A stretch of DNA of 64,000 nt from Planctomycetota bacterium. Its GTDB lineage: Bacteria; Planctomycetota; UBA1135. The DNA is taken from the NCBI GenBank assembly GCA_045047305.1, contig JASFYO010000003.1:96073-160072 (forward strand). The letters run 5' to 3'. Below are positions 12,317 to 29,484 of the stretch, piece by piece (positions within the stretch are counted from its first letter, which is position 1; every line of letters begins with the position of its first letter). Both the position numbers and the translations under genes were made by a program. A model generated the notes under the pieces. That model searched no databases and was not told where the DNA came from. It worked only from the letters and a program-made list of their open reading frames with translations.

Positions 12317-12898
12317 ATGCGGACGACCCTCACCAGCCTTGCATTCGGCCTTGTTGCTATGGCCTGCAGCACCGGAACCACCATGGATCAAATCCCAGAA
12401 CCAACGTCACCTGCAATCCCTGCCTCGATGACTCAGGAAGCGACTTTTGCCGCTGGCTGATTCTGGGGTGTTGAAGCCCTCTACCGTGCAGTAGATGGCG
12501 TTCTGGAGACGGAGGTTGGTTACATTGGCGGGCAGGTACCAAATGCGACCTACCAGCAAGTTTGCTCTGGTACTACTGGGCATGCAGAAGCGGTGCACGT
12601 GACTTTCGACCCAGCCAAAGTCGATTACGAGGACTTGCTCGCTATTTTTTGGGCCAACCATGATCCTACCCAGGCAAATGGGCAAGGTTTAAACCTTGGT
12701 GATCAGTATCGTTCTGCCATCTTTTTTCACAGTGAAGAACAGAGAGAAAAAGCAGAACTGTCGAAGTCTCAACTCAGTGTTTCAGGCCAGTTTTCGAAAC
12801 CCATTACTACGGGTATCGTGGAGTTCAAAGATTTCGTTCGTGCTGAGGGATATCACCAGCAGTATTACGAAAAGCAGGGGCTCATCCCTCGCCGCTAA
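12317..12898 (+). CDS. msrA: Peptide-methionine (S)-S-oxide reductase, probable selenoprotein (TGA 12458-12460, residue 48) with putative lipoprotein signal
   Basis: ORFs 12257-12460 and 12593-12898 share a frame; reading through gives TFAAG-U-FWGVE..GYIGG..TYQQVCSGTTGHAEAV..HDPTQ..GDQYRSAIF..AEGYHQQY. Confidence 0.9.
12473..12503 (+). promoter_or_regulatory. Candidate bacterial SECIS hairpin in msrA
   Basis: GAAGCC-C-TCTAC[CGTGCA]GTAGA-T-GGC-G-TTC stem-loop starting 12 nt after the UGA; G at loop position 2. Confidence 0.65.
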
Positions 12899-23541: not shown

Positions 23542-25812
23542 TCAATCGCGGGTATCGTTGGCTTTGCGTATTAATAGATCTTCAAAACGGTCCAGGAAAT
23601 CCCACTCGCGCCCAGACCAGATATGACCACCGAAGCGTGTGCGGTAAACCAAACGAGTAATCGTGCTGAGTGGAAGATAAAATTCACCTCCCCAGCGCTG
23701 CACCGACCGAGCGAATTCCGAAGCCGATTCACTGCGTTTTTTGTGGAATCCTAAGATTTCTAAGTGGCTGCGAACGCGAGCCCAATAGTCCATGGCAAGG
23801 ATGGCTTCGGTGGAAAACATGGCCTCTTTAGCGTGCTGTTTTTTGCGTTGCATCAAGACGCTAGCCAAATTGCCAATCGTGACTGCGAGAACCACGATGC
23901 CGAGGATGGCACCAATGGAAGTCATGACTAGGTTGAGGCTGGCAGAGTTGGAGTTCAAGCTTTGACTTGGCTGTTCCGTCTCCTCTACGGCGGCAGGTAT
24001 CTCTAGGGCAACAGGTGGAGCTGGGTCTTCAGGGAAGGCTTCTGTGTCCTGACGTGCCCGCAAAGCCGCAATTGCATCCATACGTGAGCCGGAAGGCGTA
24101 GGTTCGAGAGTCCGCCACGTGCCATCATTTTGCAATACCTCGACCCAGGCATGTCCTGGTAAACGCCCAAGGTAGGCCTGATGTTGCGTGGAATATTCTG
24201 TCACCATAAAGCCGGTGGCTACCCGACATGCAATCCCGTTGGCGCGCAAGTAAAGCATGGCGGCCGATGCAAAGTAAGAGCAGTACCCACGCTTCTGTTC
24301 AAAGAAATCGGAAAAGGCTTGAATCCCATTTTTGGCCGAGGGCTCTAAGTCGTACACATAATCCTGATGAAAGTGATTCAGGATGCGGTCAAGTTTAGCT
24401 TGCTGGGAGGGCTTTTCTTGGCACAGATCTAAAGCAGCTTGCACCCAAGGACGAAACTCCGCTTCTTTTGGCAGCGTTAGGTAGCGTGGGGGAGCGCGTC
24501 GGACCGAAACCAGTGGTACGTTTTTATTCACTGGATGGCTCAGCCATTGGTACTCAAACATCGCAGACTTTGGCACTTCTGCCAAAGCCGTATGGTCATT
24601 CTCATCCAGGCGGCAACTTGGATAGCGCAGCGCAACCATGGTGCGATCGTGGAGGAGGAAAGAAAGCCGCCCCTTGCCTCCGTTCTGTTGATGTAACAGA
24701 GGTCGGGTTTTCATCTTGAACTGGATCACGGCATCCTTGCGGAAGTCTGGGTTGAAAATCACCCAATCGTCCGATCCAAGCCCACTATTGGCATGGAAAA
24801 TCGCTTCCGGCGCAAAACCCCGAGAAAGACCCTTTTCGCTAAGGGTGTCGAAGGTTGTGGCTGCCAAGTAAAGCGGGCGTGCCGCCGAGAAATAGGGGCG
24901 CGTACGGTTGATGTCGCGATCGGAACGCAGCTGAAAGAGCCATACATCCTTGGTTGATTGCGTAACTCTACCTTGCCATGGAATTTCAGTCGGAAAGATA
25001 AAGTCACGAGGCGGCTCATGGTCAATCTCCGCCAAATCCCTGTTTGAATTTTCTTCGCCGGTGTCGCTGTTGGCGTTGTCAGAGGCTACAAAAGAATCGC
25101 TCGACACAGCTTTTTCCTTGGGAACCATCCAGCTAGTCGTTTGTTGCAGTATGAGGCCAAGGGGAAACAGCATTAACCCCATGATCATCATGAAGCGGGC
25201 TCGCGCCCAAAGGCCAGCGCCGTCTTCTGGCGGGTTCAGGTGAGAGCGTTCATGTCGGAGCAGGCGCCGACGGGACCAGCGGGCATGAAGCCAGGTAGCG
25301 ATGCCGCCGGCCAGAAGAAGGCTGCTGAGCATCCAGGTGCTAACGATGGCTCGCGCGAGTAAATCCCCAGGCCACAATACGTGGTGCGCTAGAAGAAGTT
25401 CTGCTGTGGAAAGGATTAACGCTAAGGCGGCGAAGTTATCAAAGCGCGCATAACGCATCGCGTAGCCATGTAGGCAAAGTAAAAGCGCAACTCCCCAGCT
25501 AGCAGCGGTGGCACTTGGCGTTAAAAAGGGAAAACTCAAAATCATCACCAAGTAAAAGCTTTGGTTGATGAGCTCGTGATGCTTTTCCTCAAGTGAGAAA
25601 AAGTTAATCCAACGCGTAGCGAAGGGTGCGAACAGCAGGAAAAACGGAAGAAAAACGGCTAGGCCTAAGGGCCAATCGCTTTGCTTGGTAAAGAACAGCG
25701 CGCATGCGGAACCGCCAGAGATGGCAAGCACCATCAGACCCCGTTGACACCAGCCGTCGAGCGGGGATCTCGGCACTAGGTGGTAGAGACGACGTCGGGC
25801 GTAAGATCTCAT
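23542..25812 (-). CDS. Membrane transglutaminase-like protein (TgpA-like)
   Basis: N-terminal TM segments; GYCSYFASA, RVATGF, HAWVEV and LEPTP; ATGA overlap with DUF58. Confidence 0.85.
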   Translation of the reverse strand: MRSYARRRLYHLVPRSPLDGWCQRGLMVLAISGGSACALFFTKQSDWPLGLAVFLPFFLLFAPFATRWINFFSLEEKHHELINQSFYLVMILSFPFLTPSATAASWGVALLLCLHGYAMRYARFDNFAALALILSTAELLLAHHVLWPGDLLARAIVSTWMLSSLLLAGGIATWLHARWSRRRLLRHERSHLNPPEDGAGLWARARFMMIMGLMLFPLGLILQQTTSWMVPKEKAVSSDSFVASDNANSDTGEENSNRDLAEIDHEPPRDFIFPTEIPWQGRVTQSTKDVWLFQLRSDRDINRTRPYFSAARPLYLAATTFDTLSEKGLSRGFAPEAIFHANSGLGSDDWVIFNPDFRKDAVIQFKMKTRPLLHQQNGGKGRLSFLLHDRTMVALRYPSCRLDENDHTALAEVPKSAMFEYQWLSHPVNKNVPLVSVRRAPPRYLTLPKEAEFRPWVQAALDLCQEKPSQQAKLDRILNHFHQDYVYDLEPSAKNGIQAFSDFFEQKRGYCSYFASAAMLYLRANGIACRVATGFMVTEYSTQHQAYLGRLPGHAWVEVLQNDGTWRTLEPTPSGSRMDAIAALRARQDTEAFPEDPAPPVALEIPAAVEETEQPSQSLNSNSASLNLVMTSIGAILGIVVLAVTIGNLASVLMQRKKQHAKEAMFSTEAILAMDYWARVRSHLEILGFHKKRSESASEFARSVQRWGGEFYLPLSTITRLVYRTRFGGHIWSGREWDFLDRFEDLLIRKANDTRD

Positions 25813-27014
25813 GCGCGCCTGCTTTGCAAGAAACCGGTTTGAGAGAAACGTCGGTCCGAGTGGAACCATCGTTTTGTGGCAGGGTCAAGGATGTCGAGGC
25901 GTTGGCGTCTGCTGTCGCGAAGATTGCCTCCGCCCGCACTGATTTGAATGCGGAAAGCCTTACGGCTGCGCATTCCGGTCGGTGAGAGGGGGTTGGCCGT
26001 TTGCGCTACTCCCTTGTCTTTTGGGAATTCGATTTCGGCAAGTTTGGTGAGTACACCAAATAGTCCAGAGCGGCCACGTTGTTCTTCAAGGAAGAATGCA
26101 TTTTGGACGTCGGTGCAAACCACCTCGACTCGATAGTTGCGGCGCAGAAAAAAGTCGGCAAGACTTGCGGTCAAACAAATGGACTGCTCAAAAAGAAATT
26201 TATCTGAGCGTTGACGCGCCGTAGTCGGAAGCGGGGGGATTAGCTCTAATCGAATGCTGGGTTTACGGACTCCATGCAGTTCCTTGAGCATGAGGCCATT
26301 GCGGCGTGCCGTGCTTTTCCAGTGCACATTGCGCTGGCTCATGCCGGGGCGCCACCGTTTGAGAGTATGAAACTCCTCGGCGTCTTGGAAGCGGCCAGTG
26401 TTAGCAACCAAGGTTTCGCGTTCGGGTGGAATTAAACTTAGTGGATCACGCAAGGCTCCAAGACGTGGCAGTGCCAAGAAATCGGCGGGCAGTTCCCATG
26501 CAGAAGTCCACCGAATCAAGCCGAATGGAAAGGTCGAGGCCAAGCGTAAACCATGTGTACTGAAGCGACCTCGCTTGGGCAGGCGTAAGTCGCCCTCCAT
26601 CCATTGCGATGTACCCGGAGCAATGCTCGCTCGATAAGCAAATAGGCCACGGCGATGAAAATCACTGCCGTGGTAAACCAATATGTCGTGGGCAGTAAAG
26701 CGACTGCCAGTGTGGTGCAAGCCAAACCGAATCGATAATTTTTCCCATGCAAACCCGGTTGCGGGTTCTAGGCCGGTAGGCGCAAGCGAAAGCAGGGAAA
26801 CCCGTCCGTAAAACCAACTGCTTAAAAACAGCAATAGGAGTAAACTGGAAAACCCAAGGAAAATAGGAGTTGGGCTAAACCCTTGGAGGGCGATGTAAGC
26901 GAAGCCTAGGGCTCCACTGACCCACAAAAGTGATTTTGCCAGCGGAGTCAGGCGCCAACGAACACCAAGGCATCGGCCACTTTCATTTTGCGGATTCGCG
27001 GCCGCTTGCTTCAT
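25809..27014 (-). CDS. DUF58 family protein
   Basis: RGRF, STFPFGL and EFHTLKRWRPG..VHWKSTAR; lies between moxR and the transglutaminase. Confidence 0.85.
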   Translation of the reverse strand: MKQAAANPQNESGRCLGVRWRLTPLAKSLLWVSGALGFAYIALQGFSPTPIFLGFSSLLLLLFLSSWFYGRVSLLSLAPTGLEPATGFAWEKLSIRFGLHHTGSRFTAHDILVYHGSDFHRRGLFAYRASIAPGTSQWMEGDLRLPKRGRFSTHGLRLASTFPFGLIRWTSAWELPADFLALPRLGALRDPLSLIPPERETLVANTGRFQDAEEFHTLKRWRPGMSQRNVHWKSTARRNGLMLKELHGVRKPSIRLELIPPLPTTARQRSDKFLFEQSICLTASLADFFLRRNYRVEVVCTDVQNAFFLEEQRGRSGLFGVLTKLAEIEFPKDKGVAQTANPLSPTGMRSRKAFRIQISAGGGNLRDSRRQRLDILDPATKRWFHSDRRFSQTGFLQSRRA

Positions 27015-27964
27015 TGTGGAACCGTGACTTCGCTGAGGATGTTTTCCAAAGCGCTGGCGGTGCCGTGCATGCCACCTTCATAAGCAGGTGATGGCAAAAC
27101 CCGATGTGCAATGCAAGGAATGAATAGCTCCTTGATATCGTCTGGGGTGACGAAATCACGATTGTGAATCAAAGCGTTGGCTTGGGTAGCACGGTGCAGG
27201 CCTAAAGCAGCACGCGTGGATGCCCCAAGAGCAAGGTGTGGATGGCGTCGGGTTTGCTCAATCAAATCAAGCAGGTAGTCAAGGAGGTCATCGTCGTAAT
27301 GCACTTCTGCAACAGCCTGGATAAGCTGATTGAGTTCTGCGCTAGTCATGCAAGCTTGCACCGCATCCACCGGATCCTTGAGTCCGCGGCCTTGTAGAAG
27401 CTCTTTTGCGATGTCTCGTTCGGGATGGCCCAAGCTCAAGCGCAACATAAAACGATCTAACTGCGATTCCGGCAACGGGTAGGTACCTTCAAACTCCATC
27501 GGGTTTTGCGTGGCAATTACGAAGAAGGGTTGGGGTAATTCATGGCGTTCGCCGTCGACAGAAATCGACTGCTCACTCATGGCTTCTAGCAATGCTGATT
27601 GTGTGCGTGGGGATGTACGGTTGAGTTCATCGGCCAGCAGTATGCTGTGAAATACGGGGCCACGCGTGAAACGAAAAGTGCTTTCTTGGTTGTCCCAAAT
27701 ACTGACACCAAGCACATCACTAGGCAGCAAGTCGGAAGTGAATTGAATGCGTTGAAAATCCAATCCTAGCGCCCGTGCCAAGGCTCTGGCCAAAGTGGTC
27801 TTTCCGGTGCCAGGGACGTCTTCCAGTAAAACATGACCGCGAGCTAGGAGTCCAACCAGGCACAGGCGGATGGCATCCTCTTTGCCGCGTATGGCGAGTC
27901 CTACTGTGGCCACTAAATCATCAAGCCGCTGCAAAGGCAGGCGGTGTTGCAAACTGTTTGTCAT
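27011..27964 (-). CDS. moxR: MoxR family AAA+ ATPase
   Basis: HVLLEDVPGTGKT, RIQFTSDLLPSD, DELNRT and ATQNP..GTYPLPESQLDRF. Confidence 0.95.
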   Translation of the reverse strand: MTNSLQHRLPLQRLDDLVATVGLAIRGKEDAIRLCLVGLLARGHVLLEDVPGTGKTTLARALARALGLDFQRIQFTSDLLPSDVLGVSIWDNQESTFRFTRGPVFHSILLADELNRTSPRTQSALLEAMSEQSISVDGERHELPQPFFVIATQNPMEFEGTYPLPESQLDRFMLRLSLGHPERDIAKELLQGRGLKDPVDAVQACMTSAELNQLIQAVAEVHYDDDLLDYLLDLIEQTRRHPHLALGASTRAALGLHRATQANALIHNRDFVTPDDIKELFIPCIAHRVLPSPAYEGGMHGTASALENILSEVTVPQ

Positions 27965-28324
27965 CTAGGGTGTTTGATCTTTGCGCTGTTGCATGAACTC
28001 ATCCAAACTGCCATGGAAGGATTCGAGTTCTTTCGGGGTGTCGCTGGATTCCTTGCTAGAAGGTGGAATGTCCTGCGTTACTGAATCTGCGTCTTGCGTT
28101 GGTTGAAAAGGGTAGCCAAATGGGGATTTAGGCATGCTTCTTTTTGGCCCGATGCCTAGCGCGCTTAGAAGCAAGAAAATGAGTCCAAGCGTCAGAGTGA
28201 AAAGCAGGATGAAAAAAGCGAAAACCAAAAAGGCTAGCGTCAGTACCAAACGGAGCAGACCACCCACGAATCCTGGCGCAGCCGCTGGTCCTGGCATGGT
28301 AGCGTGAAGGAAGGGACGTGGCAT
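27965..28324 (-). CDS. Hypothetical membrane protein
   Basis: Long hydrophobic stretch and acidic tail; TAATCT 5 nt before ATG; abuts moxR. Confidence 0.6.
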   Translation of the reverse strand: MPRPFLHATMPGPAAAPGFVGGLLRLVLTLAFLVFAFFILLFTLTLGLIFLLLSALGIGPKRSMPKSPFGYPFQPTQDADSVTQDIPPSSKESSDTPKELESFHGSLDEFMQQRKDQTP

Positions 28325-28434
28325 GCCCTAGATTACGCACAATCCAAGCTCATGGCAGGCTATCTTCGGCACTTCTAAGGGTTCTTTTCTGCTAGCATAG
28401 CCACGGAATCATCCAGCCTTTTTTGGAGTTCACA

Positions 28435-29484
28435 ATGAATGCAATTACACATCTTTTAGCTGGTGCCGCTTTAACGCTAGTCGTTTCTAGCCCGGCAACA
28501 GCGCAAGTCTCTGGTACCATGCCAAGCTTTGAAGGCGCTACCTGGTACAACACACCAGCACTCTCGATGGAGGATATGGAAGGCCGGGCCGTGATGGTCG
28601 AGGTTTTCCGTACTTGGTGAGGCCCTTGTAAGAGCCAGATCCCGCACCTGAACTCCGAATGGGAGAAAGGGAATGCAAAGGGACTGGTTGTCATCAGCGT
28701 GACTGATGAACCTGCCGAACTGGTGGAGCAATGGATTGCCGATCTTGGCGTGACCCACCCCGTAGTCATCTTGCCGGACAAAGCTCTGGAGAATGTCATC
28801 GGAGTCGATGGTTTTCCAACGTCTGCTGTTTTCTTGAATAAGGAAATGGTGTGGAAAGGGTATCCCGGTGCTGCCGGACCAGAACTGGAAGCCGCGCATA
28901 AGGAAGGGCGTCAAGATAGCGTCTACCCCAAGAAACTGAGCAAGGTAGTCAAGTTTTGGAATAAGGGCGACAAGGTGAAAGCTTTGCTGGACCTTTACAA
29001 AACGATGCCGAAATTGGAAGGCAACGATTTAGCTTGGGCTGGTCGTATGGACACTTTTATGAAAAATGAAAGTGCCAAGGCCTTCGAAGCTTCTGCCAAG
29101 GCCTTCGAAGCAGGATTTTGGTTCCAGGGTGTACAACTCGCGCAGCCTTATCTGGGTAAAGGTTCGGAGTATCCTCGTGTCGCTGAAACCGTGAGCCACC
29201 TAGAAATGATGAAAGGGAGGCCAGGTTACGCCAAGGAAATCAAAGGCGGGTATCTGTACCAGCAGGCTAAGGCTCTGTCGGCCGCGGGTGAATACCTCGA
29301 TGCCTTCAAGACTTACAAGAAGGTCATGAAGAAGTCTTCCGATACTGCGATTGCCGGCCATGCTGAGACAGCTGCAAGGGAGCTCATGGATGGATATAAG
29401 CCTGGGTACAAGTCCACTTGTCCAAACTGTGATCATAAAACCGATGCTGCCTGTGCGAAGCATCGGGAGAAAGTGAAAATCTAG
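28435..29484 (+). CDS. Exported TlpA-like redoxin, probable selenoprotein (UxxC, TGA 28618-28620, residue 62), with helical C-terminal domain
   Basis: ORFs 28423-28620 and 28699-29484 share a frame; reading through gives WYN..GRAVMVEVFRTW-U-GPCKSQIPHL..GLVVISVTDE..GFPT; signal peptide (ATA/Q); GGAG RBS. Confidence 0.85.
29073..29111 (+). repeat. In-frame tandem duplication with 21-nt period (SAKAFEA x2)
   Basis: TGCCAAGGCCTTCGAAGC occurs at 29073-29090 and 29094-29111. Confidence 0.85.

Follow-up and report, generated by a model that had tools for sequence, protein, structure and literature searches.

A putative exported UxxC selenoprotein family of Planctomycetota combining a TlpA/ResA-type domain with a helical domain and a C-terminal Cys3His tail

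Selenoproteins with a UxxC active site have been catalogued under PF00578, cd02966 and PF08534 (PMC13188914, accessible text), and split-annotated candidates described as selenocysteine (Sec) "thiol-disulfide isomerase-like thioredoxins" were listed for planctomycete P1 (PMC4807772, Table S9, as far as available). The motif WCGPC is regarded as typical of reducing thioredoxins in the accessible part of PMC6282202. The gene considered here, located in a stretch of 64,000 nucleotides from a Planctomycetota bacterium (GCA_045047305.1; hereafter, the window), very likely codes for a selenoprotein of the redoxin type, carrying two further parts at its C-terminus (Table 1).

On translation, the gene is a single 349-codon frame running from ATG 28435 to TAG 29482–29484, with TGA 28618–28620 (residue 62) as the sole internal stop; the 349-aa product ends in CPNCDHKTDAACAKHREKVKI. 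This frame, with TGA in the context FRTW-U-GPC, had been proposed in an earlier note on this DNA together with a ribosome-binding site, and both were confirmed, the latter as a GGAG. A standard-code ORF finder returns only a 261-aa piece starting at GTG 28699. The gene is solitary: its upstream neighbours have the opposite orientation, and a glycosyltransferase-like ORF (a label read from the translation) lies downstream. The promoter and terminator scan yielded nothing informative, and no conserved operon was found among the ortholog loci: the only conserved neighbours are housekeeping genes shared at the family level, and none of them points to a substrate or client. The divergent cluster at 23542–28324 (minus strand), which we take to comprise MoxR AAA+ ATPase, DUF58 and transglutaminase-domain genes, lies next to its Sec gene in no more than four related loci.

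Table 1. Features of the candidate selenoprotein gene, in coordinates of the window.
Feature	Position	Strand	Basis or remark
Shine-Dalgarno-like GGAG	28425..28428	+	Sequence; 6 nt 5' of ATG
Whole CDS	28435..29484	+	349 aa with Sec62; full-length orthologs exist
Signal peptide (predicted, cleavable), residues 1-23, with A-T-A followed by Q	28435..28503	+	Pattern test; twin arginine and lipobox both absent
TlpA/ResA-type thioredoxin domain, about residues 26-158	28510..28908	+	Pfam, Foldseek, VIA
U-G-P-C active site	28618..28629	+	TGA 28618-28620 read as Sec; Cys65 likely resolving residue; 31/31 orthologs with TGA
Long SECIS-like hairpin	28633..28689	+	Fold, pair counts, synonymous-recoding scans; +13 to +69 after UGA, 57 nt
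Hairpin apex CTCC-GAATG-GGAG	28653-28665	+	Loop 36 nt from UGA; the second SECIS candidate of the earlier note
All-helical domain, residues 166-319, eight helices	28930..29391	+	AlphaFold models, pLDDT 90 and 97
C-terminal tail G-x4-C329-x2-C332-x7-C340-x2-H343 + basic end	29404..29481	+	Predicted Cys3His metal site

Comparative evidence suggests that the TGA at residue 62 very likely encodes Sec. The genome (87.7% complete) contains SelA, tRNA-Sec, SelB and SelD above curated cut-offs, and its SelD gene itself carries an in-frame TGA. Matches to the protein were obtained in 57 of 61 related genomes, the 19 best, full-length ones holding one TGA each. Scanning of a species-genome collection gave 64 loci, the close ones belonging to MAGs labelled Planctomycetota, and 94 loci were then tallied, duplicates included; in every tail-bearing locus among them TGA occupies the position of residue 62. 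The same is true of 31/31 distinct tail-bearing full-length orthologs (30–74% identity), where it is never replaced by TAA or TAG. Thus, the tally of TGA versus Cys, set by the earlier note as a test, showed that the close orthologs are not all Cys-bearing. Comparison of three ortholog pairs showed the third positions of codons to diverge more than the first or second ones on both sides of the TGA. Cys counterparts at the Sec position were found in L051, L151, P0128, P0182, P0187, P0227 and P0243: L051 has WCGAC and no tail, while L151 and the five database proteins combine CxxC with the tail. The genome of L051 possesses SelA, so the Cys in this gene is not explained by missing Sec.

The downstream part of the gene stands in databases as a separate 244–287 aa protein, as would be expected if translation truly ended at the TGA, or if the TGA were erroneous, and the gene were split or dead. 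However, 59 of the top 61 matches in a set of 5.8 billion proteins start just after the TGA and active site, as results when gene callers cut UGA genes; the other two are the protein of L051 and a tail-bearing SxxS variant. Genuinely separate genes for the two halves, a possibility raised along with the original claim, were not found. Given a TGA kept at the catalytic position in all the orthologs down to 30% identity, a coding-type divergence on both of its sides, and the presence of Cys homologs, Sec machinery and a hairpin, the reading as a stop or an error appears hardly credible and is already largely refuted.

The bSECIS consensus includes a loop of 3–9 nt with G in its first two positions, located 16–37 nt from UGA, and an MFE <= -7.5 (PMC13188914, accessible text). 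Two candidate elements had been pointed out behind the TGA and called weaker. Both strings do occur on the plus strand, but their fates differed: the first (28632–28655) displays no covariation, with 249/500 shuffles pairing equally well, whereas the second turned out to be the apex of a supported long hairpin. A hairpin immediately after the UGA (+1 to +16) was rejected as well, since 118/500 shuffles equal it. For the long hairpin, 69.7% of cells are paired over 31 orthologs and 48 cells are changed on both sides; 0/500 shuffles reach either value, and slid controls all pair less, with the covariation score inflated, by the tool's own warning, by sequence relatedness. RNAalifold produced no consensus on the 31 sequences.

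Tested against sequences in which the same peptide had been recoded synonymously, the region +13 to +69, picked after the fold of this gene was known, displayed a mean z of -2.84, with 29/31 orthologs below -1. In 19 distant orthologs, the mean was -2.29, the best of 50 other windows in the ortholog scan reaching -1.04. By class, the mean z was -2.62 for genes with Sec and tail (n = 31), -2.14 for tail-less Sec relatives (n = 35) and -0.46 for Cys homologs (n = 12), the last set being small and distant, with its nearest member at -2.1. Hence, the hairpin is Sec-linked, i.e., stabilised beyond the needs of the protein sequence in Sec genes and not in Cys homologs, and the SECIS is stronger than had been supposed (0/500 shuffles; mean z about -2.6). 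In 29/31 orthologs, the loop begins between +33 and +39, but G is present in the first two loop positions in only 18/31. The copy in the window (loop GAAUG, 36 nt, -16.7 kcal/mol) falls within the four formal bSECIS rules with its spacing near the limit, and its loop is not of the common G[G/U] type. For several further Sec candidates of this genome, short hairpins beginning at about +12 were observed, which makes the +13 to +69 hairpin atypically long. The same long hairpin was observed in a large tail-less Sec-TlpA-helical group (KWATW-U-GPC; L069-L099) of other Planctomycetota.

Additional Sec candidates were noticed in passing. In the window, an MsrA-like gene (frame about 12428–12898, plus strand) has a TGA at 12458–12460 in AAG-U-FWG and no signal peptide seen; it is probably the selenoprotein that had been counted as the first one, the present gene being the second. 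Elsewhere in the genome, a 1090-codon FG-GAP + UnbV/ASPIC read-through protein (G000:C63, TGA 3738, minus strand; L193, L196-L219) carries a TGA in D-L-U-S-x-F-W. In this family, the TGA stands at the same position in 21/24 loci, and Asp or Glu, but never Cys, takes its place in the remaining three; a 6-bp hairpin near +12 shows covariation in its stems and frequently has GGUC as its loop, and the literature search revealed no description of such a protein. Further likely Sec genes were recognised by motif in the same genome at C44:4526(-), C56:16881(-) and 16521(-), C82:63514(+), C23:21086(-), C56:20900(+), C73:10631(-), C34:355(-) and C55:5483(-). These are presumably a TxxU peroxiredoxin, a double-TGA VPGU + MsrA-like gene, a DUF3179-like, two thioredoxin-like, a deiodinase-like and two AhpD-like genes.

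The signal peptide was called by a simple pattern test, not by SignalP: among the orthologs with a start Met (n = 30), a hydrophobic core is present in 30/30, in line with the signal peptide claimed initially, and an AxA-type site in 25/30, with RR and lipobox in 0/30 each. Residues 1–24 have pLDDT <50 in the AlphaFold model. The domain that follows exceeds the Pfam cut-offs for AhpC-TSA (43.3 bits against 26) and for Redoxin (36.6 against 26.6), and ResA is its best PDB match in both sequence and fold searches (Foldseek: 4nmu, E 1e-7; VIA: 2f9s, Z 16.2, rmsd 2.6, 132 aligned). Residues W61, U62, P64, C65, F127 and P128 are invariant in 31/31 rows, F127-P128 being at the cis-Pro loop position, judged by sequence. 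No NCBIfam model was over its cut-off (NF002854 ResA 55.4/170, NF047696 TlpA 27.8/230, NF041054 32.5/300 bits); across the orthologs, matches to the same families were obtained. Overall, the suggestion of a Sec-redoxin holds, as judged by the predicted TlpA/ResA fold and by the conservation of TGA for the attacking residue. That the Sec site would serve as a peroxidase, or more generally as an antioxidant, instead of in protein disulfide reduction might be read from AhpC-TSA being the best Pfam label and from the name peroxiredoxin given to some database copies. It seems improbable in view of the top structural matches, which are ResA/DsbE/TlpA-like, and of the motif W-U-G-P-C, as opposed to PxxxTxxU of peroxiredoxins (PMC13188914, accessible text).

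The active site varies within the family. The 54 distinct tail-bearing full-length genes (loci) include 41 with UxxC, one with CxxC, five with SxxC, one with a single Cys and six with none, four further UxxC genes, missed by the pattern, being outside this number. In 68 database matches, a set biased against Sec genes because these are cut, 26 have no site, nine SxxC, three one Cys and three CxxC, the rest (27) being fragments. The tail is kept in 12/12 paralogs (loci) with neither Sec nor CxxC and in 38/68 database matches with SxxC, one Cys or none, a retention that is partly by construction, as redox-dead paralogs were mostly found via the tail profile. A tail-free profile applied to 91 genomes of family f9 returned 30 loci (14 with the tail, one cut by a contig end and 15 lower-scoring ones without it), mainly recovering genes already found by the tail profile. 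In the locus L151 (G331:C150:36100-40000), two tail-bearing paralogs stand in tandem, one with CxxC and one without a redox residue.

A tree of thioredoxin domains was computed from 82 rows and 135 columns; it predates the discovery of the divergent group, and its bootstrap had not entirely converged. It unites the 31 orthologs with L051 and the SxxS variant in a single clade (100/100), placed among Sec-TlpA-helical relatives that lack the tail. One such tail-less paralog resides in this very genome (G000:C3 51825, plus strand; L194) and features a signal peptide, a TlpA domain with WATW-U-GPC and a helical domain, with 35% identity over the thioredoxin domain. The gene in L051 lost both Sec and tail; this one case fits a possible link between the two.

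The C-terminal part had been described as about 200 aa of TPR-like helical sequence. Structure prediction bears out its helical nature, the TPR-like character being limited to the last three helices (265–319), a unit with rmsd 1.6 over 51–55 residues to TPR proteins (VIA; best Z 7.8, none >=8). Foldseek with the helical domain gave nothing at E <= 0.001, none of 30 C-terminal halves was matched by Pfam TPR_19/TPR_20 with E <= 0.1, and searches in the Atlas led to weakly recognised Planctomycetota clusters, unnamed or labelled as TPR. Such generic helical/TPR matches of the modelled C-terminal half are no evidence of a new fold. A high Lys content and a net basic charge (mean +5.8) characterise the helical half.

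The tail is modelled at pLDDT 94–98. In its 37-row alignment, C, C, A, C and H are invariant, and a spacer of 6–8 (Cx2Cx6-8Cx2H) was found in 54/54 distinct tail-bearing full-length genes. No relative of the tail was found in Pfam, PDB or Atlas. The tail profile matched 58/339 genomes of the class, one match being noise, and 10/401 genomes sampled across the phylum, of which the four outside the order are three Sec-TlpA-helical-tail genes and one noise match (G238, G641, P0188 and P0260 were discarded as noise on inspection; L146 looks frameshifted and was left uncounted). Among 1.84 billion representatives, 86 matches were obtained, 84 with the tail and 77 also matching the tail-free body profile; a word-indexed search gave 68 matches, all 68 with the tail and 67 with the body. 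The seven of 86 lacking a body match are of 66–168 aa and keep the last helix of the family, several of them behind unrelated N-termini; most likely, they are fragments or chimeras. Since nearly all tail matches carry the body, the tail belongs to the signal peptide-TlpA-helical architecture, and a mobile module was rejected. It was encountered only at the end of this architecture and only in Planctomycetota, the tail profile having been run on Planctomycetota genomes and most protein matches coming without taxonomy.

Zinc is the default metal for a ligand set of three Cys and one His, and a structural Zn site is our best inference for the tail: the invariant Cys3His, the flexible spacer of 6–8 and the persistence of these ligands in the absence of catalytic residues would be more in keeping with a metal site than with a relay. 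Two other cofactors were considered and dismissed: heme c (CxxCH), since His comes right after CxxC in only 3/54 genes, and an Fe-S cluster, which seems unlikely given that the signal has no twin arginine. The tail could also be a metal-free second redox centre exchanging electrons with Sec62-Cys65, seeing that it holds a CxxC and that L051, the sole nested Cys-type gene, is without it. This has little likelihood: the CxxC is no more strictly conserved than the third Cys and the His, tail-less Sec relatives are common (including the paralog in this genome), and the tail is intact in SxxC and site-less paralogs, making an electron relay for Sec unlikely.

Zn-release switches exist in Hsp33 and TrxC, and the tail might act likewise if the protein were an exported chaperedoxin, that is, a helical holdase for unfolded envelope proteins to which the Sec site would be an add-on reductase and Cys3His an oxidation-triggered zinc switch. 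By analogy, a thioredoxin joined to a TPR-like domain and the natural CxxC and SxxC variants would recall the pattern of CnoX (PMC6282202, accessible text), and the many paralogs without a redox site keep body and tail, implying a scaffold that functions without catalysis. We consider it doubtful, in view of the missing TPR_19/TPR_20 matches, the basic, Lys-rich helical half and a match to the Salmonella structure 3qdn at only E 2.1 and TMq 0.24. Membership in the CnoX family itself was rejected: 30 C-terminal halves contain neither PF14559 nor PF14561 (E <= 0.1), and a signal-peptide-like N-terminus is present in 30/30. PF14561 finds nothing in this genome, although the same profile matches E. 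coli and Caulobacter.

With moderate confidence, the protein can be viewed as an exported, Sec-dependent TlpA/ResA-type disulfide reductase; its helical domain likely holds partners or clients, and its Cys3His tail is predicted to bind structural zinc. According to this reading of the sequence, SelB would recognise the hairpin at +13 to +69 and insert Sec62, and the protein would be exported and cleaved after residue 23. The selenolate of Sec62 would then attack client disulfides and Cys65 would resolve the adduct, as in CGPC thioredoxins; recycling may be carried out by a DsbD-type protein, a DsbD_TM gene being present elsewhere in the genome. The tail would bind Zn and cap or anchor the last helix, with no part in catalysis, as suggested by its retention in relatives whose active site has gone. 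A bolder and only tentative generalisation would be a group of Planctomycetota-specific exported seleno-chaperedoxins, with a Sec-TlpA reductase, client-holding helices, a new minimal Cys3His zinc switch, a Sec/Cys/Ser/dead paralog series and an unusually long SECIS whose loop sequence is not fixed.

These findings leave the principle of Sec recoding unchanged, and Sec-TlpA enzymes were already known. They add a putative exported selenoprotein family that gene callers reduce to a "hypothetical" fragment without signal peptide and active site, and define a 20-residue Cys3His motif matchless in the libraries searched. The natural Sec/Cys/Ser/dead series on one scaffold raises the questions of the benefit of selenium outside the cytoplasm and of the helical domain's own role. 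The conserved 57-nt hairpin, with its variable loop at the outer bSECIS limit, represents a test case for target recognition by planctomycete SelB.

Among known systems, the protein resembles the catalogued UxxC Sec-TlpA selenoproteins (PMC13188914) in fold, UxxC, in-ORF UGA recoding and Pfam scores over cut-offs but adds a 150-residue helical domain and the Cys3His tail; the accessible text of that catalogue has no TPR, repeat, ResA or planctomycete entry. The text of BSepDB (PMC13326102), as far as accessible, mentions no TlpA, thioredoxin or planctomycete, and the database may list these genes under a TlpA/redoxin label. The candidates of planctomycete P1 (PMC4807772, available part), compared by description only, are likewise split-annotated Sec thioredoxins from Planctomycetota. 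Residues 24–158 have their closest counterparts, both in sequence and in structure, in the extracytoplasmic disulfide reductases ResA, CcmG(DsbE) and TlpA (PDB 4nmu, 2f9s, 3gl3), which share the export predicted here; unlike them, the present protein has Sec in place of the attacking Cys, a predicted cleavable signal instead of a membrane anchor and two extra C-terminal parts, and is encoded outside any cytochrome c maturation cluster. NCBIfam NF041054 (WAxxUGC) is similar in length (354 positions), ResA-like domain and Sec, but the match (32.5 bits vs. the cut-off of 300) is confined to the thioredoxin domain, and the motif is UGPC, not UGC. With CnoX/YbbN, it shares an N-terminal thioredoxin fold, a C-terminal helical TPR-like domain and natural CxxC/SxxC variants (PMC6282202, accessible text), whereas the partners of CnoX are cytoplasmic DnaK/GroEL and TrxR, and the protein described here is set apart by its TlpA-type domain, predicted signal peptide, Sec and Cys3His tail, with no detectable TPR_20 match. 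The literature searched, with few subscription papers in scope, holds no description of the signal peptide-TlpA-helical-tail architecture, so the initial impression of an unrecognised architecture stands as far as the accessible parts of the compared catalogues go: the redoxin part belongs to a selenoprotein type already on record, and the tail motif is uncatalogued.
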